This document shows, piece after piece, positions 2,954-47,176 of a stretch of 47,176 nt of DNA. Origin of the DNA: Candidatus Daviesbacteria bacterium RIFCSPHIGHO2_01_FULL_40_11 (GTDB lineage Bacteria; Patescibacteriota; Microgenomatia; Daviesbacterales; UBA10151); contig MFCP01000004.1 in NCBI GenBank assembly GCA_001776635.1, forward strand, positions 1,124 to 48,299, given 5' to 3'. The notes under the pieces are model-generated. The model saw only the letters and a list, made by a program, of their open reading frames with translations. It was not told where the DNA came from and did not search any database. A program made the position numbers and the translations under genes. The first letter of the stretch is position 1. Every line of letters starts with the position of its first letter.

Positions 2954-5074
2954 ATGGATCCTAAAACTCCGCTTTCGCAAGTTACAGGAATTGGACCTGG
3001 GCTTTTGTATAAACTTAAAAGGCTCAATTTAAATACTGTTCAGGATTTAATTTATCATTTTCCCTTTAGGTATGATGATTTTTCCAATGCTACCTCAGCA
3101 CTGGAAGCCAAAATAGGGGAGTCTGTTACATTGCAGGGGGAAATTTGGTCTATCCAGAATATTTACACCAGGTCCAGAAAAATCATCACCAAAGCCATCT
3201 TTAATGACGGCACCTCACCAATAGAACTGACCTGGTTTAACTCTTCCTGGCTGACTAAGCAAATTCAAACTGGGGACAGGTTACAGGTTTCAGGAAAGAT
3301 AGCCAAGTACAAAAGTAAGCTTTCGATAATAGCTCCACGCTGGGAGAAACTTGACACCGAGAAACAGCTTCCCACTCGTCAAGTGGGAACACAAAGTTTG
3401 CATACCGGGCGACTGGTTCCTATCTATCCTGAAACCGAAGGCTTAAGTTCCAAATGGCTGCGGACAAAAATAGACCAGCTACTGCCCCAAGTTATAAATC
3501 AAATTAGCGATCCCATGCCGGATGAAATCAGAAACGGCATGCTGCTGCTTGCTCCGGCCATCCAACAAATCCACTTCCCAAAAGACTTCGAACAGGCAGA
3601 AAAAGCTAGAGATAGGTTGGGATTTGATGAGCTGTTTTTTGTTTCTTTAGCCACCCAAAAAGCCCGTTTAGAATGGAGCAAAAAACCGCTGGTTGAGCCC
3701 TTAAAAATCAAATTAGACCAATTGGACCAATTTATAAAGAAGTTACCCTTTGAATTAACCTCTGCCCAGCAGAAAGTTTTAAAAGAAATCCTGGAAGACC
3801 TTAAAAAAAATCAGCCTATGAATAGGTTAATCCAGGGAGAAGTAGGCTCAGGCAAAACAGTCGTCGCCACCATTATTGCATACTTGGTGCACAAGAATAA
3901 TCTTCGAACCTTATTTATGGCTCCCACGGAAATTCTGGCATTCCAACACTTTGAGACACTTTCCACACTTCTCGCACCATTCGGACTGACGGTAGGAATC
4001 TATACAGGAAGCAAAAAATTTACCCGTGTTGTCATTCCGAGGGAGCGAAGCGACCATGGGAATCTTCCACGAACTGGGAAGATTGCTTCGCTAATAGCTC
4101 GCAATGACGTTTCTTTACCCGACATTATCATTGGCACCCATGCCCTTCTTTCCGAAAAACTTTCCACCGAGAATGTCGGTCTTGTCATCATAGACGAACA
4201 ACAGCGCTTTGGCGTAGAACAAAGGACCCTCCTTCGCGGAAAAGCCAAAATCCCGCATTTTCTGACCATGACAGCCACTCCCATACCGAGAACTGTGGCA
4301 TTAACCCTCTATGGTGATTTAGATATGTCCGTCATTGACGAACTGCCTGAAGGACGTCAGAAAGTTAAAACATATCTGGTACCGGAAAAAAAGAGGCTAG
4401 ATTCTTATAAATTTATCGCCAAGAAAGTGGCGGCGGGGGATCAAGTCTATATCATTACGCCTTTGATTGAAGCTTCGGAAACCCTCTCCACAGTCAAAGC
4501 CGCCAAGGTGGAATTTGAGAAACTAAAAAAGATTTTTCCCGACCTTAAATTAGACCTACTCCATGGCAGGATGAAAGGAACCGACAAGGAGCATGTCATC
4601 GGGGATTTCCGCTCTGGCAAAACGAATATTTTAGTTTCCACCTCTGTGGTAGAAGTGGGCATGGACAACCCTAATGCCACAATTATCGTGATTGAAGGGG
4701 CGGAACGTTTTGGGTTAGCCCAGCTTCATCAACTCAGAGGCAGAGTCGGCAGGGGCAGAAAAGAATCTTATTGTTTGCTCTACACATCAAATTATTCAAG
4801 CGATGAAAGAAGAAGATTGAAATACCTAGAAACTACCTTTGACGGCTTGAGGCTAGCTGAGTTGGATTTAAAAATCCGCGGCAGCGGGCAAATTTTTGGA
4901 ACTGCCCAATCCGGCAGGTTTGAGTTTAAAATAGCGAACTTTTCTAATATCACATTGCTAGAAAAGACTAAACAGGCAGCGAAGGATTTGTTGATTCAAG
5001 ATCCTACTCTTGACAAATACCCGTTACTCAGGGCAAAATTACAGGAAATCGCATCAGAAGTGATGCCTGATTAA
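2954..5074 (+). CDS. recG: ATP-dependent DNA helicase RecG
   Basis: 706 aa. Walker A GEVGSGKT, DEQQRFGV (motif II), TATPIPRT, and C-terminal helicase motifs QLHQLRGRVGRG. The N-terminal wedge-type region is of the usual length. Confidence 0.9.
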   Translation: MDPKTPLSQVTGIGPGLLYKLKRLNLNTVQDLIYHFPFRYDDFSNATSALEAKIGESVTLQGEIWSIQNIYTRSRKIITKAIFNDGTSPIELTWFNSSWLTKQIQTGDRLQVSGKIAKYKSKLSIIAPRWEKLDTEKQLPTRQVGTQSLHTGRLVPIYPETEGLSSKWLRTKIDQLLPQVINQISDPMPDEIRNGMLLLAPAIQQIHFPKDFEQAEKARDRLGFDELFFVSLATQKARLEWSKKPLVEPLKIKLDQLDQFIKKLPFELTSAQQKVLKEILEDLKKNQPMNRLIQGEVGSGKTVVATIIAYLVHKNNLRTLFMAPTEILAFQHFETLSTLLAPFGLTVGIYTGSKKFTRVVIPRERSDHGNLPRTGKIASLIARNDVSLPDIIIGTHALLSEKLSTENVGLVIIDEQQRFGVEQRTLLRGKAKIPHFLTMTATPIPRTVALTLYGDLDMSVIDELPEGRQKVKTYLVPEKKRLDSYKFIAKKVAAGDQVYIITPLIEASETLSTVKAAKVEFEKLKKIFPDLKLDLLHGRMKGTDKEHVIGDFRSGKTNILVSTSVVEVGMDNPNATIIVIEGAERFGLAQLHQLRGRVGRGRKESYCLLYTSNYSSDERRRLKYLETTFDGLRLAELDLKIRGSGQIFGTAQSGRFEFKIANFSNITLLEKTKQAAKDLLIQDPTLDKYPLLRAKLQEIASEVMPD
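4031..4108. repeat. GC-rich imperfect palindromic element embedded in frame in recG
   Basis: The arms are gtcattccgagggagcgaagcgaccatgggaatcttcc and ggaagattgcttcgctaatagctcgcaatgac, and the loop is acgaactg. The arms share the blocks gtcatt, gag, cgaagc and aatcttcc as reverse complements. The element is 78 nt (26 codons). Confidence 0.7.
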
Positions 5075-15287: not shown

Positions 15288-15780
15288 AAATTCTCCCTCC
15301 TTGCTCAACAATTACTTGCTTTGTGTTACTTGTTTTGGAATTTAGCAGCGTAATGATTATCGAACTTGAACCGCAAGATGATACCATTGTGCCATAAAGT
15401 GGTGCGAAAGTAACTGTGGTACCAAAAGGACAATTAGAAATTCCTGTGGTAATACCACTAATAGAAATATCTGCCGGAAGCGATAATTTTTTTAAGGAGC
15501 TCGTTATACCGGATGAATTTTGGCATTCCAAATCCAGCTCTGTGGCATTTGTGAATACCACAATCCAACCAAGAGTATCCTGGCTCTGACATTTTAAACC
15601 TGAAGTCGAATTAGATTGGGCTAAGCGCAAAAAGCTTTGTACGTCAAGGGCAGCATTTTTAAAGTTCTGGTCTTCTCCAAAAGATTTATAATTTGCCAGT
15701 GTAAAGACTCCTACAATAGCCATAACGGCCATAACTACCAGCAGCTCAACAAGAGTAAAACCATGGGCAGATTTCAGCAT
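15277..15780 (-). CDS. type IV pilin-like protein
   Basis: N-terminus MLKSAHG|FTLVELLVVMAVMAIVG. Start set at the ATG at 15780; the longer track ORF would run through the upstream intergenic promoter-like repeats. Confidence 0.7.
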   Translation of the reverse strand: MLKSAHGFTLVELLVVMAVMAIVGVFTLANYKSFGEDQNFKNAALDVQSFLRLAQSNSTSGLKCQSQDTLGWIVVFTNATELDLECQNSSGITSSLKKLSLPADISISGITTGISNCPFGTTVTFAPLYGTMVSSCGSSSIIITLLNSKTSNTKQVIVEQGGRIYAQ

Positions 15781-15788
15781 CTTGTTTC

Positions 15789-15820
15789 CATTGTACATTG
15801 TAAATTCTACATTGTACATT
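15789..15820. repeat. 11-nt direct repeat with 21-nt period in the pilin intergenic region
   Basis: cattgtacatt occurs at 15789-15799 and 15810-15820, and each copy contains the palindrome tgtaca. On the coding strand this creates three TACAAT boxes. Confidence 0.75.
15790..15818 (-). promoter_or_regulatory. candidate promoter for the pilin gene starting at 15780
   Basis: On the minus strand, TGTACA-17 nt-TACAAT, with the -10 box ending 9 nt before the ATG. Confidence 0.35.
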
Positions 15821-15823
15821 CCC

Positions 15824-16273
15824 TTATGGTGGAGTAAACTCGAGATTATAAGTAGAAACAGAGCCACAGCTATAAGAACCATTAGGCTGACTTTCTAACT
15901 TGGCATAGAGTTTATAACTGGTGCATTTATTTGTAGAAGAATTATCACAGGGATTATTTGGCAACGCTAGATAACAATAGTTAGGCGAAGATTGGGGGTC
16001 GCTGGGAATAGTATTAAGATAAGTTCTTCCACCGGCAGATAGCGCCCCACCGTTAAATGTAATTGCCGACGGGTAATCGAATTGGTCTGCAAAGTATTGC
16101 TCCAAGGCTGATTGGATGGACCGCAAGTCCGATTGCCTTTTTGAATCTCGTCCCTGTTTTAAAACACTAGAATAAATAACCAGTCCGATTAGGGAAAGTA
16201 CGGCAATAATACTAATTGTTATAAGAAGCTCTATTAAAGTAAAACCACTGCGGCAACGGGACATCAGTTTCAT
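15824..16273 (-). CDS. type IV pilin (PulG/PilA-like)
   Basis: N-terminus MKLMSRCRSG|FTLIELLITISIIAVLSLIG, followed by a GRDSKRQSDL helix, as in T2SS-G/T4 pilins. Confidence 0.75.
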   Translation of the reverse strand: MKLMSRCRSGFTLIELLITISIIAVLSLIGLVIYSSVLKQGRDSKRQSDLRSIQSALEQYFADQFDYPSAITFNGGALSAGGRTYLNTIPSDPQSSPNYCYLALPNNPCDNSSTNKCTSYKLYAKLESQPNGSYSCGSVSTYNLEFTPP

Positions 16274-16279
16274 TATGCA

Positions 16280-16744
16280 TTATTGCTGGCTAGAGACACA
16301 ATAGATATTATCAGGGTTAGTACCAATTTCCAGTAATGCACAAACCTGGAAATTTGTTGGACTATTATCGGGTTGCCCGCTAGAAATTGCGTAAAAGGTA
16401 TCCGGGCACTGCGTATTATCCCAGACAGTAGGCTTTGGAATAGTGTTATTTGTTGCAAGAATACAATATTGAGGCGTACGATCAGAAGAATCAGTTGGCA
16501 CTACACCACCTGCAAATTGAGTCTTAGCTAATGGTTGATAAGCAGTTGCTCCCTTATTAACCTCCAACACCCTTGAAATAGCATCAATATCACCTCTCCT
16601 TTTACTATCACGGGCTTTGGATTGAACACTATTATACATTCCAACAGCCACCAGAGATAAAATCCCAATGATAGTAATTACTATCATCAGTTCAATCAGG
16701 GTAAAACCACGGGGATCTTTAAAAGTGGGCAGGAATTTTTTCAT
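16280..16744 (-). CDS. type IV pilin (paralog of the 16868-17395 pilin)
   Basis: N-terminus MKKFLPTFKDPRG|FTLIELMIVITIIGILS and a C-terminal Cys pair (VCALLE...YCV). Start set at the ATG at 16744, because the track start lies inside a TTGACA/AATAAT promoter. Confidence 0.75.
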   Translation of the reverse strand: MKKFLPTFKDPRGFTLIELMIVITIIGILSLVAVGMYNSVQSKARDSKRRGDIDAISRVLEVNKGATAYQPLAKTQFAGGVVPTDSSDRTPQYCILATNNTIPKPTVWDNTQCPDTFYAISSGQPDNSPTNFQVCALLEIGTNPDNIYCVSSQQ

Positions 16745-16765
16745 TAAATTTTGTTTACTGTTTTT

Positions 16766-16795
16766 ATTATTTGCATACCTTAAACGAACTGTCAA
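16766..16795 (-). promoter_or_regulatory. sigma-70-like promoter for the pilin gene starting at 16744
   Basis: On the minus strand, TTGACA-18 nt-AATAAT. The block tatgcaaataataa is shared with the 17416-17445 promoter. Confidence 0.55.
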
Positions 16796-16867
16796 TGAGT
16801 CACAGCAAATTGCTCTATGGTTATGTAAAATAAATATCTAAAGAGTTAGATTAAAATTCAGAGAGGA

Positions 16868-17395
16868 TTATTGTATAAGGTTGCTCTTGCAGAATACTGT
16901 GTTACTTCTCTCAAGTGTTGCACAAACTTTCCAGCCTCTAATACTAGCGCTATCTGTTATATCATTACCTGCACCAAGCACACCGTTAATAGTTGTCCCA
17001 GTAATAGATGCCCAGCCACCAATAGGACAAGCGGGTCCAGTCCAAGGAGTAGGATTGCCAGTAGGGCCAGAAAATGCGCTAGAGGATGTACTTCCTATCT
17101 GACAATACACCTTACTACTGACTGGATCAGATAGACCGGGGACAGGATAATCTGTATTAAATCGTGCCTGTGGATAATAATAGTATCCTGTCTGGGGATC
17201 CCTAGTTGATTCAATATTCTTGGCTAAGGCATCAATTTCAGCCACTCTTCTGGCATCTCTGGCAGAACCTTGAGCTCCAGAGAAAATACCCAGCACAACA
17301 ACTGCCAAAATTCCAATAATGGCTATTACTATCATTAGCTCAATCAGGGTAAAACCGGAAGTACTTTTAGAAGAATTGGGCAGGAATTTTTGCAT
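16868..17395 (-). CDS. type IV pilin (paralog of the 16280-16744 pilin)
   Basis: N-terminus MQKFLPNSSKSTSG|FTLIELMIVIAIIGILA and a C-terminal Cys pair (VCATLE...FCK). Confidence 0.75.
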   Translation of the reverse strand: MQKFLPNSSKSTSGFTLIELMIVIAIIGILAVVVLGIFSGAQGSARDARRVAEIDALAKNIESTRDPQTGYYYYPQARFNTDYPVPGLSDPVSSKVYCQIGSTSSSAFSGPTGNPTPWTGPACPIGGWASITGTTINGVLGAGNDITDSASIRGWKVCATLERSNTVFCKSNLIQ

Positions 17396-17415
17396 AGATT
17401 TTTATTAACTGACTT

Positions 17416-17445
17416 ATTATTTGCATAAACAAACATAGTTGTCAA
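17416..17445 (-). promoter_or_regulatory. sigma-70-like promoter for the pilin gene starting at 17395
   Basis: On the minus strand, TTGACA-18 nt-AATAAT, with the same architecture as the 16766-16795 promoter. Confidence 0.55.
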
Positions 17446-17476
17446 TACCCTTATTTTGTCAGTTTTCAATAAGCTT

Positions 17477-18397
17477 TTATATGCCTATATGTAAGTACCA
17501 GTCAACAATCTGGTTTCCCCAAAAGAGCATAATTAAACTGCCCAAAACCAAAAATGGACCAAAGGGTATGGTTTGTCCAAAATGCTTTTTACCACTAATA
17601 ATGAGCGCTACTGCGAATATAGCACCGATCAAAAATGATAAAACAACTGCAAATATAGCTTGCGGGAACCCTAACACGAGTCCCATAAACGCTCCCAACT
17701 TGACGTCTCCACCTCCCATGCCTTTCCCGCTAGTTACAATTATCAAACTTAAGAAAAATCCACCGATCAAAAACCCCATCAAAATTCCATAAAAAAGAGG
17801 CTGGGCAAGAATAATTGCGTGTCTTTGAAAATATTCACTGTGTAGGGGAAGCAGTAATCTGCCCACCGGACTTTGGGACAAATAATAGTAAAGATAACCT
17901 ATCTTATAAAGAGTAATCAAGGAGAGAAAAATCAACCCAATCCAGATGGCAGGTAAAACAACCCTATCCGGAATAAACATTTTCTTAAGATCAGTTAAAA
18001 AAAGAACTGCCAAAGTTGTTATGAAGAAAATTTTAAGCAGAAGGTCTAACAGAGTAACTGAAAATTGAAAATTGAAAATTGACTGAAAACTGAAATCTGA
18101 AAATTGAAAATTCTTGAAGCTCTGCCAGAACAGAAACCCTACCAGTATTCCCATCATCACCTCAACCACCAAATACTCTATCCCAATCTTCTTGTGGCAA
18201 TATCTACACTTTCCACGCAAGTATATATAGGAAACAACAGGAAAAAGGTCGTACCATGCCAGCTTGTGCCGACATTTCGGGCAGTACGACCTTCCCCAGA
18301 ATGACTTTTTACCTAAACTCCTATCCGCTATCGCTTTAACAAAACTTCCTAGCACCGAGCCTACAACAAATCCAAGGACAAAAATTATATTTCCCAC
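17477..18397 (-). CDS. pilD: prepilin peptidase/N-methyltransferase PilD (peptidase A24)
   Basis: 306 aa. N-terminal CPKC...CRYC zinc-type motif, multiple TM segments, and the GGGDVKL active-site motif. Confidence 0.9.
   Translation of the reverse strand: MGNIIFVLGFVVGSVLGSFVKAIADRSLGKKSFWGRSYCPKCRHKLAWYDLFPVVSYIYLRGKCRYCHKKIGIEYLVVEVMMGILVGFLFWQSFKNFQFSDFSFQSIFNFQFSVTLLDLLLKIFFITTLAVLFLTDLKKMFIPDRVVLPAIWIGLIFLSLITLYKIGYLYYYLSQSPVGRLLLPLHSEYFQRHAIILAQPLFYGILMGFLIGGFFLSLIIVTSGKGMGGGDVKLGAFMGLVLGFPQAIFAVVLSFLIGAIFAVALIISGKKHFGQTIPFGPFLVLGSLIMLFWGNQIVDWYLHIGI
18061..18113. repeat. heptanucleotide tandem repeat inside pilD
   Basis: aaaattg occurs three times at 18061-18081. It then occurs once more at 18100-18106, followed by one aaaattc at 18107-18113, after an 18-nt related spacer. 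The region encodes FQFSDFSFQSIFNFQFS. Confidence 0.8.
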
Positions 18398-18940
18398 TTA
18401 ATATGTACAGCTACCACCCGATGCAGCAATCAGAGTTAAATCAGAACCGACTTCGTAAAGAGTGTCCTCATTACCACCATCCGCTCCTGCCTTACCTGAC
18501 TCCTTCTGAGATTCCAAAGCAGTGTTGATTTCCCAACCGCTACCATCAGAACAATAAGTATAATGGTTCACCACAGTATTGAGTTGATCAACGGGCAAGG
18601 TCGGAACTGACACACTCTTCTGAGCGGACAGATTAACTTTCACCCAACCTGTTCCGTCTGAATTTCTGGTACCAGTGTTACTCGATCCAGGACATGGTAC
18701 TGTACCACCCTCACAGAGAATGGTAGCCGCAGAACCGGTTGCTTCTTGAACTGCCACATTAATTGCTTGTTGTAAGTTAGCAAGATCAGACAACCTAGCC
18801 GCATCACGGCCTCTACGGGTAAGCTCCAACGGATTAATAATCAAAACAACGACTGCTGCCAAAATGGCAATAATTGCTATAACTACCAAAAGTTCAACCA
18901 AAGTAAATCCTTTGGTCAAAACTTGAGCAGATTTTTTCAA
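18398..18940 (-). CDS. type IV pilin, candidate major pilin
   Basis: TTG start preceded by the strong SD GGGGGTGA 6 nt upstream. N-terminus MKKSAQVLTKG|FTLVELLVVIAIIAILAAV. It lies between pilC and pilD and has its own promoter-like element. Confidence 0.75.
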   Translation of the reverse strand: MKKSAQVLTKGFTLVELLVVIAIIAILAAVVVLIINPLELTRRGRDAARLSDLANLQQAINVAVQEATGSAATILCEGGTVPCPGSSNTGTRNSDGTGWVKVNLSAQKSVSVPTLPVDQLNTVVNHYTYCSDGSGWEINTALESQKESGKAGADGGNEDTLYEVGSDLTLIAASGGSCTY

Positions 18941-23014: not shown

Positions 23015-23043
23015 ATTATGTTAAAATCTCCCTGTGATTGCAA
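23015..23043 (-). promoter_or_regulatory. candidate promoter for pilB (head of the pilus locus), leaderless geometry
   Basis: On the minus strand, TTGCAA-17 nt-CATAAT, with the -10 box ending 6 nt before the ATG at 23008. The -35 box lies inside the first codons of holB. Confidence 0.4.
23019..23027 (+). promoter_or_regulatory. extended -10 element for holB, leaderless geometry
   Basis: TGtTAAAAT, ending 6 nt before the GTG at 23034. It interleaves with the pilB -10 box on the other strand. Confidence 0.35.
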
Positions 23044-23750
23044 GACTTTTAATTTCACCTAATATTGAAAGAAGGTTAGAGGCGATCAAAAAGATACTAG
23101 CTTCCCACATCGGAAGCCTACCTGCCTATCCGTCCGGCAGGCGGGCCGGTAAGGCAGGTGGGAATACAAATCACCCAGATGTGCTGTATTTTGAAACGGG
23201 GGAAAAACTGGGAATTGCAGAGGCCAGAAAGATTAAAGAACATTTTTCCTTAAAGCCATATTCTGCCTCCGGAAGGGTAGTAATCATAGAAGATGCGGGA
23301 GTTTTGACCCCTGAGGCCCAAAACGCCCTGTTAAAAACCCTAGAAGAACCACCAAAAGAAGCAATTTTAATTTTAGGTGCGGGATCCGATGCCGAGCTTC
23401 TACCGACAATTTTATCGAGGTGCCAAATCCGTCATCTCGAGGCTACAAGTTATGATACACCAGAGTATCATCGTGAACATATCAAGAACTTAGAAGGATT
23501 ATTAAATGCTTCCATCGAAGAGCGTTTCGCATTTATTGAAAAGCTTAAGGATAGGGAGCAGTTCCTGCATTCTGCGGTGAACTTCTTTCGCCAACAATTA
23601 CTCGAATCCACCCACGAAAGGTCGTACCCTTTAGGCCCGACCCGACAATTTCTTCAAGAGCTCCTGCAAGCGGAGGAGTGGGCTAAACAGAATGTTAACA
23701 CTCGGGCAATTTTGGAATATTTAATGCTGGTTATGCCTTCTGAAATATGA
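23034..23750 (+). CDS. holB: DNA polymerase III delta-prime subunit (short form)
   Basis: GTG start. Motifs HPDVLYFE, AQNALLKTLEEPP, LPTILSRCQ. No obvious Walker A. Confidence 0.75.
   Translation: MIARLLISPNIERRLEAIKKILASHIGSLPAYPSGRRAGKAGGNTNHPDVLYFETGEKLGIAEARKIKEHFSLKPYSASGRVVIIEDAGVLTPEAQNALLKTLEEPPKEAILILGAGSDAELLPTILSRCQIRHLEATSYDTPEYHREHIKNLEGLLNASIEERFAFIEKLKDREQFLHSAVNFFRQQLLESTHERSYPLGPTRQFLQELLQAEEWAKQNVNTRAILEYLMLVMPSEI
23098..23166. repeat. composite GC-rich palindromic element embedded in frame in holB; shares a 19-nt core with the murC element
   Basis: tagcttcccacatcggaag (23098-23116) is identical to 26522-26540. It is followed by cctacctgcct...aggcaggtggg (an 11-bp inverted repeat with 1 mismatch) that encloses ccggc/gccgg. 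Confidence 0.75.
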
Positions 23751-26349: not shown

Positions 26350-27726
26350 ATGGCTAAAAAGGTTCATTTCTTAGGAATAGGGGGTAGTGGGGCATCAGGG
26401 GCGGCGGCGATTGCAGAAGCTCAGGGCTTTGAAGTAACAGGTTGCGATCTGCAACCTAATAATGAGTTCACCACCATCTTCAAACCCAACCAGCTCCTCA
26501 CCGGTCACAGCCCGCAACATTTAGCTTCCCACATCGGAAGTGGGAACGTAGCCCCCGATTCAATCGGGGTAGATATCTTGGCAGTAACTCCGGCCATTTT
26601 TTCTCTTGATCCAGACAATCCCGAGCTTTTGGCGGCCAAAGAAAAAAATATTCCAATCATGACCTGGCAACAATTTCTTGGAGAGTACCTAACCAAAGAT
26701 AAATTTGTTATTGCCATATGCGGAACACACGGTAAAACCACCACCACTGCCATGATTGCTAAACTTTTGGAAGATGCCGGACTGGATCCGACAGTACTTC
26801 TTGGAGCCATAGTACCAAAATGGGGGACAAACTATCGCATACCCCGACAAAAAGTTCACAACCAAGAATATTTTGTCATAGAGGCTGATGAATTTAATGA
26901 CAACTTCTTACCCACCAAACCTGATATTGCTGTGGTAACCAATATCGAAATGGACCATCCGGAATATTTCAAGGATCTTGAAGCAGTTAAAGACAGCTTT
27001 AAAAAGTTCCTAATACAAGCCAAACAAACTGTGGTAGCCAATCTCTCAGATCCTGTAGTAAATCAAATTTTAAGTATCCACCCTAAGGATGTCAATACAA
27101 TTATTGATTACTCAAAACATCTTATAGATTTTACATTACAAATCCCCGGAGAATTTAATATCATGAATGCATCTGCTGCATTCCAAGTGGGACTCATATT
27201 AGGTATTGACCCTCAAGCAACCAGACAAAGCCTGGAAAGATTTACAGGGGCGAGCAGAAGGTTTGAATATATTGGGGAATACCAAGGCGCCAAGGTTTAT
27301 TCCGATTTTGGCCATCACCCAACAGAAATAGCGAAAACCATGGAAGCTGTCCGGGAAAAGTTTCCCAAAGAGAGAATTTTACTAATTTACCAACCACACA
27401 TGTTTTCCAGAACCAAAACCTTATTTAATGATTTCGTAAAAGTTTTTCAGAAGGTACCTGCTGATAAAACTTATATTATAGACATCTATCCATCACGGGA
27501 AGTCGACACAGAGCTAGTCAGCAGCCATCAGTTGGTTAAAGCAATCCAGAAGGAAATAGAACCAAAATTTCGCAATAGCGAAAAAGTGGTACCAGCTATC
27601 GTATATATAGGAAGCAAAAACCAAACCTTAAACAAACTAAAACCGGAGATAAGAAAAGGGGATATTGTCTTTTTTATGAGCGCCGGGGATACTGATGAAT
27701 TAGCTAAAGAGCTAGTCCGCTCCTAA
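26350..27726 (+). CDS. murC: UDP-N-acetylmuramate--L-alanine ligase MurC
   Basis: 458 aa. N-terminal HFLGIGGSGASGAA Rossmann motif, Mur ligase P-loop CGTHGKTTTT, and the DEF.D and HHP motifs. Confidence 0.9.
   Translation: MAKKVHFLGIGGSGASGAAAIAEAQGFEVTGCDLQPNNEFTTIFKPNQLLTGHSPQHLASHIGSGNVAPDSIGVDILAVTPAIFSLDPDNPELLAAKEKNIPIMTWQQFLGEYLTKDKFVIAICGTHGKTTTTAMIAKLLEDAGLDPTVLLGAIVPKWGTNYRIPRQKVHNQEYFVIEADEFNDNFLPTKPDIAVVTNIEMDHPEYFKDLEAVKDSFKKFLIQAKQTVVANLSDPVVNQILSIHPKDVNTIIDYSKHLIDFTLQIPGEFNIMNASAAFQVGLILGIDPQATRQSLERFTGASRRFEYIGEYQGAKVYSDFGHHPTEIAKTMEAVREKFPKERILLIYQPHMFSRTKTLFNDFVKVFQKVPADKTYIIDIYPSREVDTELVSSHQLVKAIQKEIEPKFRNSEKVVPAIVYIGSKNQTLNKLKPEIRKGDIVFFMSAGDTDELAKELVRS
26522..26572. repeat. 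double-hairpin element embedded in frame in murC; shares a 19-nt core with the holB element
   Basis: The sequence reads tagc-ttcccac-atcggaa-gtgggaa-cg-tagc-ccccgat-tca-atcgggg-tag, giving two 7-bp stems, each preceded by tagc. Confidence 0.75.
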
Positions 27727-30240
27727 CTTCCTAACCCAATCCTTAAACTGATTTCCCCGGTCTTCAAAATCTCTAAATAAATTAAAACTGGTTGAAGCAG
27801 GGGAGAGAAGACAAATTTTTCCAGGTTCAGTCACCTCAAAGGCTATTTTTACAGCTTTCCCCATATACTCAACATCAAATTTTTGTGGTGGTTTCTTGGA
27901 ATATTTACTGGTGGCATCCCAAATTTTTATGCCGGTATCCGGAAAAAGTATCAAAGTTTTAATGTGTGATTTTGCAATAGCCTCACCTAAAATAGAATAA
28001 TCCAAACCCCTATCGAATCCTCCGGCAATCAAAGTAGCAACATTTCTACCTAAGGCGGAAAGCGCCTCGACTGTTGCCTCCGGAATGGTAGACAGTGAGT
28101 CATTATAGAATCTGATTCTGGAAACTTCACCAACAAATTCCAGCCTATGAGGAAGAGGCTTAAAATTTATTATTGCCTCTTCAATTTTCTCATCTGGAAT
28201 TTTAAATAATCTTCCTATAATAATAGCTGGCATAATATTTAAAAGATTAAATTCTCCCAAAAGAGGGATAGTGTCTTTGTGTACTAAATTTTCGACTATT
28301 TGTTTATCTTCTTTTGAAAATGAAATCTTTTTAGCCTTAGAAACCTGGGCAATTAATTTTAGCCCCGGAATATCTTTGTTATAAATCAGGTAATCCTTCT
28401 GTGTTTGAAACTTGGTAATATTATTTTTTGCCTTAACATATGTTGAAAAATTTCCGTGATGGTCTAAGTGCTCGGGATAAATATTAGTCATTACTGCTAT
28501 ATAAGGGCTAACATCTAGATCTTCAAGTTGAAAAGAAGACAGCTCATAAACAAAAATGCTGTCTTTGCTGTCCTCTTTTAAAAAATCCAAAGCCGGAGCT
28601 CCGATATTACCAATAAGATGAGCCCTAAGGCCTCCTTTTTTAAATACCTCATAAATCAAAGAAGCGGTTGTACTCTTACCCTTTGTTCCCGTGACTCCAA
28701 TAACTTTGCCTTTGCAGTTTTTTAAAAATATTGCCGTGGGGGAGGTAATAATTTTTCCTTCTTCTTTAGCTCTTTGAATGTCTGCAAAGAAAGGGATTCC
28801 GGGAGATTTGATAATAACATCGTAACTAGTTAACGAACTTAAATAATTTTCTCCAAAAAAAGTTTTACCCACATTTTTTGGTAACTTAAGATACTCTTTT
28901 CTGTCTGCTGCATCCACTTTTTTAAAGGGAAATTTTTCCTTTAAGAATTTAAGGACCGACAATCCTTCTCTTCCCAATCCCAGAATTAAAATTGTTTGGA
29001 AGGACTGTAAAACTTTAGGGATTTCCTCTCCGTTTTTCTTTGCTCTTTCAACACTTAAAGAAATTGCGAGTTTTATCTCTTCAACCGTAGCCACACATTC
29101 AAATGGCTTCACCTGATCATTTTCGCGAAGCAATCCGTGAACAATGGGTATTAAATTCTCATCATCTAATAAATTCTTTCCAAAGATCTCTGCTACCTTC
29201 TTGCCCAAAAAGGGGTAGAGGAGAAGATAAGTGGAGACACACTTTGGGCACTTACCGCACCATATGCCTTGTTTCGAGCCTTTGTTACAACTTCTAAACA
29301 GTTTGTGATATTTCTCCATTTTAGAAAAGGATTCAGCTACTTGAAGTTCACCCAAGCTACTTAAGAAACTAAAGTAATTGACGGAGGGAGATAAATACTT
29401 TTTGGAATAATCTCTAAAATCTTGTTCAAATTCGCCAGTTTTGGAGTACTGGTGGTTAATTTCCTGGCCCATCCATTTCACATTTCCTTCATTAGAGGAG
29501 GCTTCATTAGAAACCACCAGATTCTTGTAATCATATAAGACTCCTGCAAGGGTAGAAAGAAATGCCAAATAAGCGGAAAAGGGGGTATGACCGTTCAAAT
29601 AACCTTGCTCATTTAGTTTTATAAGTGCTGGATCTATTATTCTTTTGATAATGATTGAATTTTTACATCCGCCCACCTTGGCTATCTTTATTGCTGCCTC
29701 AGTTGGGTTTAAAACCAAACATTGAAACTCTTTTCCTTTTTGGCTGTCAGATTCCAGAGTCAGAGCAGAATCTTTTCCTCCTCCGACCAAGACTAAATCC
29801 CGATCCTTTAACTCACCATAATACAAGCTAAGTTTCTGTCGATTCTCAATTTTAAACTCCACTAAATCTTTTTGGGTAAAATCTATTTTATTGTTGTAAA
29901 AGAACTCACCTAAACCTTTTACTAAAAGCTTTTTCCAAAAAGCAATTTGATCCTGATCCAGAAAACCGGCTTTAATAATGATTTGAGGGGAACAAGCAGC
30001 TTTCCAGTAACTTAAGAGCTCAATCATCCCTAAGTTAAACACCAAATTTTGCAAAACCCCAGAACCAATTTCCTTCAGTCTTCCCTCCGAAACATTTGGC
30101 ACAGTAAGTTCTGGCATAAATTTAATATTCGGGGTCAGCAGAAAATTAAAAGTAATCTTTAAGTTTCCATTTTCAGATAAAATCTTAAAATCCTCATAAA
30201 TTAACTGTCTGTGTTTATCCTTAAGTTCATCAAAATTCAT
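27712..30240 (-). CDS. fusion protein: N-terminal QueC-like PP-loop/Zn-cysteine domain (about aa 1-410) plus C-terminal UDP-MurNAc-L-Ala--glutamate ligase MurD (about aa 413-842)
   Basis: C-terminal half: ILILGLGREG Rossmann motif and GVTGTKGKSTT P-loop, a MurD-type layout. N-terminal half: VGGGKDS (nt 29767-29784) and Cx9CxxCxxC (nt 29239-29289), resembling adenine-nucleotide alpha-hydrolases such as QueC. Confidence 0.8.
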   Translation of the reverse strand: MNFDELKDKHRQLIYEDFKILSENGNLKITFNFLLTPNIKFMPELTVPNVSEGRLKEIGSGVLQNLVFNLGMIELLSYWKAACSPQIIIKAGFLDQDQIAFWKKLLVKGLGEFFYNNKIDFTQKDLVEFKIENRQKLSLYYGELKDRDLVLVGGGKDSALTLESDSQKGKEFQCLVLNPTEAAIKIAKVGGCKNSIIIKRIIDPALIKLNEQGYLNGHTPFSAYLAFLSTLAGVLYDYKNLVVSNEASSNEGNVKWMGQEINHQYSKTGEFEQDFRDYSKKYLSPSVNYFSFLSSLGELQVAESFSKMEKYHKLFRSCNKGSKQGIWCGKCPKCVSTYLLLYPFLGKKVAEIFGKNLLDDENLIPIVHGLLRENDQVKPFECVATVEEIKLAISLSVERAKKNGEEIPKVLQSFQTILILGLGREGLSVLKFLKEKFPFKKVDAADRKEYLKLPKNVGKTFFGENYLSSLTSYDVIIKSPGIPFFADIQRAKEEGKIITSPTAIFLKNCKGKVIGVTGTKGKSTTASLIYEVFKKGGLRAHLIGNIGAPALDFLKEDSKDSIFVYELSSFQLEDLDVSPYIAVMTNIYPEHLDHHGNFSTYVKAKNNITKFQTQKDYLIYNKDIPGLKLIAQVSKAKKISFSKEDKQIVENLVHKDTIPLLGEFNLLNIMPAIIIGRLFKIPDEKIEEAIINFKPLPHRLEFVGEVSRIRFYNDSLSTIPEATVEALSALGRNVATLIAGGFDRGLDYSILGEAIAKSHIKTLILFPDTGIKIWDATSKYSKKPPQKFDVEYMGKAVKIAFEVTEPGKICLLSPASTSFNLFRDFEDRGNQFKDWVRKLGAD

Positions 30241-46143: not shown

Positions 46144-47176
46144 TCATGGTGAAGGAGATGGACTTGGGCTGGGACTTAGGCTTGGACGGGGGGAGGGAGA
46201 AGCACCACCGCTAATAACAATTTGGCAAGTCGGGGCGGGAATTTCTGCTTGTGGGCCGGCCACAGGTTCCGGGTTATCACCGCTACAGGCAGCGTCAGGC
46301 ATTGATACCCTCATACAGGCCCAATCTATGGAGTTAACCCGGCAATCTTTGTTGAAATCCCCGGATCTTGTACAAACATCTTTGGTCAGACTAAACTGGG
46401 TATTTAGCTCACTTTTGTCAGGAGCGTTGATTTTCCCGTCTCCGGCAGCTGCCGGGAAAATATCCCCCACCGGCAGGACAAAACCGGAAATGTTAGTGGT
46501 ACCTTCCTCTGCTATGAACGAGATGCTTCTGCGCAAAGACTTAGGGGCTTTAAGTGACAGGATATATCTTTTACCTGCCTCTAATTTGACGTCTTTTAAG
46601 CCCTGAATCACACCATCTTTGTCAATACTCACTGTTTGTTTGATCAGTGTCCCTCCCTCAAAAGCGCCTGCCAAAACTAGCTCCACATTATCGGTCTGTT
46701 GGGCAAAAGGCTGCCGGCAAAAAATCCTGGCCCCCAAAGCAAGTTGCGAGATAGCACTGCAAGACCCTTCGGCACTTTGCCCGTCTTGAGTAGTCAAAGT
46801 CAGATTAAGCGTTTGTCCGGTCGGGGCATTTGGCCAGACTACTTTGATGCTACTATTTACCCATTCTCTCACTTCTTGCAAGTCAGCGCCGCCGCCTTTG
46901 ACTACTCCTTTAGTTGAACCGAAATTTTCCCCGGTCAAATTCAAAATGGCGTTGTTTCCCTCAAAATTTAAATCGCAGCCTGTGATTTTTGGCTCAGGAC
47001 CTAAAATCCTGATTTGGGCAGTACAATAGTCTTTATTTTCACCACAGGAAACTCGCTCATTGGAATCCTTGAACTGGACAAAGATAGATTTCACCCCGGG
47101 GGTGCTGTCTTTAAATTTAAAATCGTCAATTTTGATCGGTTCAGTATCATAGGGCTTCCACTCTGCGGCATTCAGC
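46144..47176 (-). CDS. secreted protein with dockerin-like EF-hand pair and C-terminal Ser/Pro repeat (5' partial, runs off the window)
   Basis: The reading frame stays open from the GTG at 47094 up to base 47176, so the gene is probably truncated by the window edge. Dockerin-like loops AAGDGKINAPD and GDFNKDCRVNSID lie at nt 46309-46470. The protein ends in SPSPSPSPSP. Confidence 0.5.
   Translation of the reverse strand, partial: LNAAEWKPYDTEPIKIDDFKFKDSTPGVKSIFVQFKDSNERVSCGENKDYCTAQIRILGPEPKITGCDLNFEGNNAILNLTGENFGSTKGVVKGGGADLQEVREWVNSSIKVVWPNAPTGQTLNLTLTTQDGQSAEGSCSAISQLALGARIFCRQPFAQQTDNVELVLAGAFEGGTLIKQTVSIDKDGVIQGLKDVKLEAGKRYILSLKAPKSLRRSISFIAEEGTTNISGFVLPVGDIFPAAAGDGKINAPDKSELNTQFSLTKDVCTRSGDFNKDCRVNSIDWACMRVSMPDAACSGDNPEPVAGPQAEIPAPTCQIVISGGASPSPRPSLSPSPSPSPSP

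Follow-up and report, generated by a model that had tools for sequence, protein, structure and literature searches.

We analysed a 47,176-nucleotide (nt) stretch of contig MFCP01000004.1 (hereafter the window) from Candidatus Daviesbacteria bacterium RIFCSPHIGHO2_01_FULL_40_11, a member of the candidate phyla radiation (CPR; Patescibacteria). Within this window a short palindromic hairpin, probably of the repetitive extragenic palindrome (REP) type, is translated as part of three genes: recG (copy 1), holB (copy 2) and murC (copy 3). A preliminary description, made from the sequence alone, had pointed to a 19-nt identity between the holB and murC copies in the same reading frame, and this we confirm. 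The sequence TAGCTTCCCACATCGGAAG lies at 23098-23116 in holB and at 26522-26540 in murC, on the plus strand in both, and these are its only exact copies in the window; no further match was found there even at three mismatches, and shuffled sequences give an expectation of 0.01. Both copies are translated in one common frame, as L-A-S-H-I-G-S.

The holB-like gene (23034-23750, plus strand) encodes a DNA polymerase III delta-prime subunit of 238 residues, with a match to Pfam family PF13177 (DNA_pol3_delta2, E=1e-27) and PDB matches to delta-prime, gamma and tau clamp-loader subunits. By its homologues, this gene assigns the window to Candidatus Daviesbacteria (Microgenomates, CPR). The murC gene (26350-27726, plus strand) encodes a UDP-N-acetylmuramate--L-alanine ligase of 458 residues, recognised by the Pfam families Mur_ligase, Mur_ligase_M and Mur_ligase_C and by MurC structures in the PDB down to E=1.7e-64. 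Here the 19-nt core is part of an intact hairpin, AGC-TTCCCAC-ATCGGAA-GTGGGAA-CGTAG (26523-26551, plus strand), which ends in a GTAG tag at 26548-26551 and whose arms and loop are as first described. In holB, the 5' part of the same hairpin (23099-23116, plus strand) comprises the AGC flank, the left arm TTCCCAC (23102-23108), the loop ATCGGAA (23109-23115) and a G; exact sequence matching places the right arm GTGGGAA at 23158-23164, followed by TACAA rather than GTAG. The two parts are held apart by a 42-nt insertion (23117-23158, plus strand), 14 codons reading LPAYPSGRRAGKAG. The preliminary description had reported a GC-rich palindrome separating ATCGGAAG from TGGGAA, and this segment indeed has 70% GC (window, 40%) and folds far more stably than shuffled sequences do (z=-4.4). 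When the 42 nt are removed, the holB sequence becomes ATCGGAAGTGGGAA and the identity with murC grows to 26 nt.

A scan for hairpins uncovered the third copy, which the preliminary description had missed. The recG gene (2954-5074, plus strand; 706 residues; PDB match to 1gm5 RecG, E=6e-15, in the wedge region) contains AGC-TTCCCAC-TCGTCAA-GTGGGAA-C at 3366-3390 (plus strand), that is AGCTTCCCAC-TCGTCAA-GTGGGAAC, with CACAA instead of GTAG on its right. It is read as Q-L-P-T-R-Q-V-G-T, in a frame unlike that of holB and murC, and lies in a variable linker ahead of LHTGRLVPIYP. The left half AGCTTCCCAC thus has three exact occurrences in the window, one in each of the three genes, and the pattern TTCCCAC-N(1-30)-GTGGGAA is found twice against an expectation of zero. 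The density is three hairpin copies per 47 kb, every one of them intragenic.

The holB protein and the DNA context of its hairpin are identical in five of five independent Joint Genome Institute (JGI) assemblies, and the murC context is identical in all three of these assemblies that extend that far. An assembly chimera or artefact at either site is ruled out because the five independent assemblies agree. Scans of the whole window with Rfam at gathering thresholds and for tRNA and transfer-messenger RNA (tmRNA) gave no matches, which disposes of the hairpin as a known RNA family or a tRNA fragment. An uptake-sequence reading was likewise set aside, as the window holds no high-density k-mer motif (TTCCCAC occurs nine times, GTGGGAA four times). 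The most over-represented 7-mer in the window, CCGGCAG (14 occurrences against 1.9 expected), was rejected as a repeat family, the contexts of its occurrences having nothing in common.

Hairpin sites in holB, murC and recG

The preliminary description had taken the holB core, like the GC-rich segment within it, for a lineage-specific insertion, to be sought in an alignment of orthologues. For the core this was not borne out. The consensus of 37 aligned holB orthologues reads ILASH(I/L)--GSGN(T/V)NHPD at the site. By a simple motif count, [A/R]SHxx[S/G/C]G[N/K] is intact there in 26 of 120 holB homologues; an expanded form, in which SH and G(N/K) are separated by additional residues, occurs in five of the 120 and, by eye, in several more, and 10 of the 120 have a second such motif in the C-terminal half. 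The DNA of other Daviesbacteria species tells the same. In two of their metagenome-assembled genomes (MAGs; loci L002 and L003) holB has TTCCCAC-N7-GTGGGAA with differing loops, and the same arms stand at the orthologous site of L209. The hairpin in L001 has one stem mismatch, and holB of L004 has no hairpin. (Loci L001-L005 come from a scan of genome contigs with a holB alignment; the pattern used, QNALLKT[LI]E, was unspecific, with mostly Firmicutes among the matches listed.) Because LASHIGSGN is widespread across holB orthologues of the clade, it is not private to this genome.

The 42-nt segment, in contrast, is lineage-specific, being absent from the closest orthologues, and the proposal that it was inserted into the loop of the first hairpin, as a nested element, stands: orthologues at this point have either an intact hairpin, as in L002 and L003, or other inserts. 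Its outer hairpin is formed by ACCTGCCT (23120-23127) pairing with AGGCAGGT (23152-23159), with a boundary that is ambiguous by 1 nt, and its innermost element is the 17-mer CCGTCCGGCAGGCGGGC (23130-23146, plus strand), apparently the core of a second GC-rich repeat. As for the other inserts, the L209 loop reads ATC-[ACACGTGGGCTAATCGCCCAA]-GGAAGTGGGAA, with 21 nt inserted; in L211 the hairpin is a TTTACAC/GTGTAAA variant and contains a GC-rich insert of 33 nt; a related insert lies within a degenerate hairpin copy in L207; and L212 has the 21-nt insert CCTGCCT-GCCGGCA-AGGCAGG, which encodes LPAGKAG. The CCTGCCT/AGGCAGG stem is common to L212 and the window, with a loop of 7 nt in the former and of 24 nt, including CCGTCCGGCAGGCGGGC, in the latter. 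The 17-mer recurs exactly in L207, within a MurD-like gene (opposite-strand reading SARLPDGQA), and in L186, within an unrelated ORF (reading ARLPDGQG); in 1.27 Mb, for which chance predicts about 1.5e-4 matches, copies at one or two mismatches were not found. Both CCGTCCGGCAGGCGGGC and CCCCGATTCAATCGGGGTAG may be regarded as candidate repeat families. Because L212 shares the stem around a 7-nt loop and CCGTCCGGCAGGCGGGC occurs exactly in unrelated genes, the holB segment appears to be built on three levels, a REP enclosing a 21-nt hairpin, which in turn encloses 21 nt from a second GC-rich repeat of low copy number.

The loop of the holB REP therefore looks like an insertion hotspot. Inserts are distributed patchily on the holB tree, the closest orthologues (72-75% identity) being without them and distant ones (61%) having related inserts, which implies repeated gain or precise loss. 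All insert lengths are multiples of three (42, 21, 21 and 33 nt in holB, and 21 nt in murC). An AlphaFold (AF2) model of the holB product, with a mean predicted local distance difference test (pLDDT) score of 82, has a helix at residues 11-26, coil at 27-49 and a strand at 50-53, with pLDDT below 50 at residues 35-42. The REP-encoded residues would accordingly run from the end of the helix through the connecting loop, and the model places the 14-residue insert wholly in this low-confidence loop.

In L211 and L213 the replacement of TTCCCAC/GTGGGAA by TTTACAC/GTGTAAA amounts to two compensatory changes, C-G to U-A and C-G to A-U. In an alignment of the stems at eight holB sites, picked by protein homology and with inserts taken out by hand, the share of cells that pair is 91.8%; shifting the partner by one to three columns lowers it to 20-57%. 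This covariation lends modest support to a constraint on pairing, since the L211 and L213 variants may descend from one ancestral event; replacement by a sister REP type would be an equally possible cause.

At the murC site the same element is found in orthologues from L003, L115, L149, L156 and L167; in L003 it reads GCTTCCCAC-TTGAAAA-GTGGGAAC-GTA-GAT. Other palindromes occupy the site in L001 and L002, and L004 has no palindrome there. In the window, the murC REP passes directly into a second hairpin, CCCCGAT-TCA-ATCGGGG (26553-26569), which has a second GTAG end (26569-26572), so that a direct GTAG..GTAG repeat flanks it. This unit (26552-26572, plus strand) is a 21-nt insertion relative to L003 murC. 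Neither the murC 21-mer nor the 21-mer of L209 nor the L002 murC palindrome has further copies in the loci compared. The residues ASHIGSGNVAPDS correspond to a 13-residue gap in the alignment with Haemophilus influenzae MurC (1gqq), and in the alignment with the Escherichia coli protein the gaps are placed slightly differently. A perfect 15-nt tandem duplication, ACAAATATCTTGGTT twice (TNILV TNILV), directly follows the palindrome in murC of L001 (10400-10430).

At the recG site the reading phase differs between species: L097 and L198 have the LASHIGSGN phase, and the window and L114 the QLPT..VG phase. The linkers on either side of the element vary, and their summed length is always a multiple of three. 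Elsewhere in recG, at 4021-4108, there is a large nested palindrome, GTCATTCCGAGGG-AGCGAAGC-GACCATGGG-AATCTTCC-ACGAACTG-GGAAGATT-GCTTCGCT-AATAGCTCGCAATGAC, which encodes VIPRERSDHGNLPRTGKIASLIARND and lies in a loop of RecG; in L214 this place is taken by a different, non-homologous insert of 40 residues. The palindrome presumably resembles the palindromic insert at the murC site of L002 (CHPERSEGS...ASRSKNDN) and perhaps represents another widespread palindrome family.

A dispersed hairpin family and a Y1 transposase gene

A metagenome scan with the pattern AGCTTCCCAC-N7-GTGGGAA returned at least 118 stretches. Most of the matching contigs are of low GC content (34-42%), and many derive from JGI samples carrying this genome or from 0.1-µm-filtered 'Hain' contigs, taken as groundwater metagenomes. 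After about 20 high-GC matches had been set aside as chance and duplicates removed, the low-GC loci among the matches listed amounted to 106-107 distinct copies, on which the following counts are based. A scan of viral contigs gave three matches, all due to chance: two were terminator-like with 65% GC and one was unrelated.

The consensus, (T)TAGC-TTCCCAC-N7-GTGGGAA-(C/G)(G/C)TAG-AT, is a near-perfect palindrome of about 27-31 nt. It consists of the 7-bp stem TTCCCAC/GTGGGAA and a 7-nt loop, itself nearly palindromic, and in many copies the flanks lengthen the pairing. Flank positions +3, +4 and +5 are T, A and G in 88, 90 and 70 of the 107 listed copies, and a CTAG variant is frequent. Since the loop types come in reverse-complement pairs (ATGTCAA/TTGACAT, TCGTCAA/TTGACGA, ATCGGAA/TTCCGAT), the element is present in both orientations. 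The ATCGGAA/TTCCGAT loop of holB and murC is among the three commonest (13 of 107). Up to four hairpin copies occur per related contig.

Sixty-eight of 106 listed copies, together with all three in the window, lie inside genes rather than in the extragenic position typical of REPs, an ORF of at least 120 residues being required for the count; the other 38 are outside such ORFs. The 68 are read in three phases, as (A/R)SHxx(S/C/G)G(N/K) in 51, LPTxxVG in nine and FPxxxWE in eight. The consensus flanks place TAG or TAA stops in one of the three phases per orientation, hence two phases are open. The excess of SH..G(N/K) over FP..WE (51 against 8) would fit selection for harmless residues, with the proviso that many intragenic copies are orthologous and hence not independent in these counts. 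The preliminary description had seen in the shared frame and heptapeptide a possible sign of selection on the peptide. This was not supported: recG phases differ between species, 38 listed copies are outside long ORFs, and a more distant relative, L005, has an intergenic copy 56 nt upstream of holB. It is thus the nucleotide sequence that is conserved and not the peptide, and peptide-level convergence is ruled out by the frame differences and the intergenic copies.

The hairpin is associated with a transposase gene in related genomes. L209, a 20-kb stretch around holB from a Daviesbacteria MAG, contains a gene for a 216-residue protein with a PF01797 (Y1_Tnp) domain (27.8 bits against a threshold of 23); the best NCBIfam family for this protein, REP_Tyr_transpos (E=4.7e-14), scores under the curated cut-off. 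The gene stands between two direct copies of another hairpin, TTACACCC-CAA-GGGTGTAA. Two hairpin types thus coexist in one genome, since holB of L209 has the TTCCCAC type. At 3573-3615 and 4300-4340 of L209, direct GATTACACCCCAAGGGTGTAATCGGAGGTT copies flank the Y1 transposase gene within a type IV pilin cluster. A tblastn search with the L209 protein against all loci gathered matched eight, all of which had been retrieved solely by the TTCCCAC pattern. Hairpins of the TTCCCAC type are present on both sides of a Y1/HUH gene in L199, L116/L127, L096, L139 and L114, one of the two being degenerate in L116/L127 and in L114. In two Daviesbacteria MAGs, L214 and L215, the transposase gene is syntenic, with a class-I tRNA synthetase gene on one side and the ATP synthase operon on the other, and again has flanks of the TTCCCAC type. 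Furthermore, the Y1 genes of L096, L139, L114, L214 and L215 contain a hairpin of their own, TTCCCAC-N7-GTGGGAA, read as FPLxxWE just ahead of YPYSSY; the L116 transposase has PLSLAMWK at this position.

The transposases have about 215 residues. In their alignment the HUH motif (LMPNHxH) and the tyrosine of YIHxNP do not vary, and a YP(W/Y)SSY motif is shared. REP_Tyr_transpos is their best NCBIfam match (E=5e-14 to 2e-10). A profile built from seven sequences found E. coli TnpA-REP (4ER8) as its best PDB match, followed by ISDra2 TnpA, both marginally (E=0.016-0.07); a PDB search with one transposase sequence gave no relevant match. Protein searches find the family in abundance among Daviesbacteria, Levybacteria and other Microgenomates, in records that say only 'transposase' or 'hypothetical protein'. 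The flanking hairpins differ by transposase clade, being of the TTCCCAC type, of the (TT)ACACCC type or CTACCTCGGAGGTAG, as specific pairing of enzyme and hairpin would predict.

In the window itself, a 13-nt palindrome, CACCCCGGGGGTG (47092-47104), is identical to the murC-site palindrome of L001 (10377-10389) and similar to the hairpins flanking the transposase genes of L200 (CACACCCC..GGGGTGTG) and L209 (TTACACCC..GGGTGTAA), and may represent a second type of REP in this genome. Another GC-rich palindrome, ATTTTCCCG-TCT-CCGGCAGCTGCCGG-GAAAAT, lies at 46430-46461 inside a minus-strand ORF and is a perfect 14-nt palindrome nested in a 9-bp inverted repeat. At 27712-30240 the minus strand encodes an 842-residue protein with MurL_N, MurL_epimerase_C and MurD-like ligase domains (Pfam families of the identical L081 gene), in the neighbourhood of a peptidoglycan cluster (murC, alr, a Mur ligase gene and ddl) that stands beside holB-gyrB and, at 15-23 kb, a large cluster of type IV pilus genes. 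Four diverged 62-nt direct repeats at 15701-18910 are conserved N-terminal (N_methyl) segments of tandem pilin genes, an ordinary paralogy unrelated to the hairpins.

Origin of the hairpins

We conclude, with a probability of roughly 0.8, that the 19-nt core is part of a REP-type repeat and that the repeat belongs to a system of REPs and REP-associated tyrosine transposases (RAYTs) in Daviesbacteria and related Microgenomates. The assignment is made by sequence comparison and follows from what marks a REPtron, namely a hairpin repeat on the flanks of a Y1 transposase gene whose position is conserved. The earlier idea of a family of small palindromic elements lying in frame in essential genes is thereby upheld, with more than a hundred distinct copies and a link to a Y1 transposase gene.

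By analogy with RAYTs and with TnpA of IS200/IS605 elements, the transposase would recognise the folded hairpin in single-stranded DNA and cleave beside the flanking tag, and such cleavage would cause copies to spread and be maintained. In small, gene-dense genomes, copies would persist where they are harmless, namely in variable surface loops, at lengths that are multiples of three and in the (A/R)SHxxSG(N/K) phase of small polar residues; scarcity of intergenic DNA would explain the large intragenic share. The holB copy would be old, being common to many orthologues. Its loop would later have gained the 21-nt CCTGCCT/AGGCAGG hairpin, and entry of a further 21 nt with the 17-mer of the second family would have produced the 14-residue disordered insert. 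As for the identity between holB and murC, it probably reflects membership of one common REP subfamily, and it needs no exchange between the genes because their loop is among the commonest. Conserved copies may owe their persistence to selection for a host function, to continued activity of the enzyme or to old age and slow decay.

Several observations weigh against a REP/RAYT system. Exact GTAG is found in 33 of 107 listed copies (about 31%), and conservation is overstated because the copies were collected with an exact-stem pattern. The density is modest at three copies per 47 kb, and L207 and L214 have few copies beyond the transposase locus. The transposases score 41-55 bits against a curated NCBIfam cut-off of 80, and their best PDB profile match (4ER8) is marginal, at E=0.016. 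No Y1 or RAYT gene was found in the 47-kb window by tblastn, so that this genome's link to a transposase comes from homology to its relatives. Finally, L199 and L116 have their flanking hairpins as direct repeats. Classical REPtrons are usually described with inverted REPs, and genes of the L199/L116 type could therefore be closer to IS200-like elements.

The palindrome might instead be a functional site of the host, in DNA or RNA, such as a binding site for a dimeric protein or a structural or regulatory hairpin, which is selected at constant places within genes for replication, repair and the cell wall and to which the transposase is linked secondarily or by domestication. Such a site would agree with the occupation of orthologous positions in holB, murC and recG across species with only about 60% identical proteins, with stems conserved and loops variable there, and with the two compensatory stem changes in holB; a transposase gene that is syntenic in two genomes is also what a vertically inherited, domesticated gene would give. 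We nevertheless hold this explanation to be quite unlikely. The sites turn over, L004 being without the element in both holB and murC and L001 and L002 having other palindromes in murC, and in the window the supposed holB site is split by 42 nt, unchanged across five assemblies. Moreover, 89 of 120 holB homologues fit neither the intact nor the expanded motif, several having decayed or variant forms, and no k-mer excess of the kind seen with uptake or architectural motifs is present.

For the holB/murC identity alone, a direct exchange between the genes is also conceivable, through ectopic gene conversion or templated repair; both are on one strand, at a distance of 3.4 kb. The identity of 26 nt includes the variable 7-nt loop and the T preceding AGC, and in L003, too, the holB and murC loops are similar (TTGGGAA and TTGAAAA). 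An exchange of this sort is very improbable, however, given that the element has many loops at both sites in many species and resides in dozens of other genes, that a shared loop is not unlikely when 13 of 107 listed copies have it, and that the identity ends at the borders of the element. Hardest to credit is a local and recurrent origin of the palindromes, by template switching during replication or hairpin-templated repair at quasi-palindromes and with no mobile element at all. This would account for the several palindromes and the 15-nt tandem duplication at one murC site in different species, for nesting exactly at hairpin loops and for a 21-nt murC palindrome that has no second copy in the loci compared, but it leaves unexplained why more than 100 copies in unrelated genes and intergenic DNA have common 14-nt stems and flanks, why the hairpin flanks a Y1 transposase gene, and why an exact 17-mer is found in three unrelated genes of three organisms.

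Relation to known repeats

Most work on REP/RAYT systems concerns Proteobacteria, in which nearly all of the repeats are extragenic. With those of E. coli, Pseudomonas and Stenotrophomonas, including the doublets known as REPINs, the present repeats share a 20-40-nt imperfect palindrome with a stem of at least 7 bp and, in many copies, a terminal (G/C)TAG tag, dispersal in both orientations, a Y1/HUH gene flanked by its own hairpin at an apparently conserved chromosomal position, and best matches to REP_Tyr_transpos and 4ER8, both with weak scores. They depart from them in their CPR host, in that about two thirds of the listed copies are intragenic, in the direct orientation of the flanks at two loci at least, in a protein of about 215 residues that falls below the NCBIfam cut-off and in an exact GTAG in only some 31% of copies. 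Unlike REPINs, the copies are mostly single hairpins and not doublets.

Rickettsia palindromic elements (RPEs) are about 100-150 nt long and CGTC-tagged, and we know of no dedicated transposase for them. The unit described here, of about 27 nt, (G/C)TAG-tagged and linked to a RAYT-like gene, has only the in-frame intragenic habit in common with RPEs. GTAG-tagged REP families and REPtrons have been described by Di Nocera et al. (2013, PMC3733652), who document intragenic REPs as a minority class: REPs are found wholly inside ORFs in several species, with the highest numbers in Opitutus terrae (GTAG type) and Rickettsia conorii (CGTC type); genes for DNA synthesis or repair hold an appreciable part of them, and in at least one case, Xanthomonas recB, REPs occupy the same site in related species. 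As with those intragenic REPs and RPEs (PMC3733652), the Daviesbacteria palindromes are translated in frame, many of them in genes for replication and repair (recG and holB in our case), some recur at one and the same place among related species, and more than one copy may be present in a gene. What sets them apart is a strong bias to a single phase (51 of 68 listed) and the nesting of palindromes in the loop. In the literature searched we found no specific report of REP/RAYT systems or in-frame palindromic repeats in CPR or Patescibacteria.

The Y1 HUH transposase (PF01797) and the direct subterminal hairpins on both sides of its gene are reminiscent of IS200/IS605 elements and their hairpin-ended miniature derivatives. 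In contrast to those, the gene here is apparently at a fixed syntenic position and not multi-copy, the protein has a C-terminal YP(W/Y)SSY extension aligning to TnpA-REP, and the dispersed units are single 27-nt hairpins rather than deleted copies of an insertion sequence. A resemblance also exists to mitochondrial hairpin or GC-cluster elements and coding palindromes (Nematomorpha, PMC6649704; sponge, placozoan and fungal mitochondrial DNA), which are likewise GC-rich palindromes in frame in essential genes of a compact, AT-richer genome. Those palindromes are organellar, and the comparison is one of analogy only. To our knowledge, no transposase is associated with them. DNA uptake sequences and uptake signal sequences of Neisseria and Pasteurellaceae are short motifs within coding regions as well, biased towards genome-maintenance genes, and the window also encodes a type IV pilus cluster. 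Uptake sequences are, however, non-palindromic and occur about once per kb; as an explanation they were rejected, given a palindromic motif with three copies in 47 kb, no k-mer excess and the link to a transposase.

REP/RAYT systems with intragenic REPs were thus known already, and what is particular here is the CPR host, the intragenic majority, the phase bias, the single hairpins, the direct flanks in some loci and the palindromes nested in the loop. One may go further and see in the REP hairpins more than tolerated parasites. Their nucleotide sequence would then be maintained through long periods of evolution at set codons in genes for replication, repair and the cell wall, their stems would track the transposase and their loops would be preferred landing sites for small palindromes, so that the REP/RAYT system would act as a generator of diversity in protein surface loops, in reduced genomes that have hardly any intergenic space. 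This extended role is speculative, and we judge it unlikely on present grounds.

In conclusion, our analysis points to a comparable REP/RAYT system in an ultra-small CPR genome in which most copies are translated. For annotation this would mean that ASHxxSGN or LPA..AG segments in CPR proteins are encoded by repeats and are not functional motifs, and that a transposase family abundant in Daviesbacteria, Levybacteria and Microgenomates is under-labelled in public records. The system would further provide a natural test of how palindromic mobile DNA survives where intergenic space is scarce, through the choice of phase, location in loops and lengths that are multiples of three. Through a hairpin loop that repeatedly takes up palindromes, essential proteins would gain and lose disordered loops.

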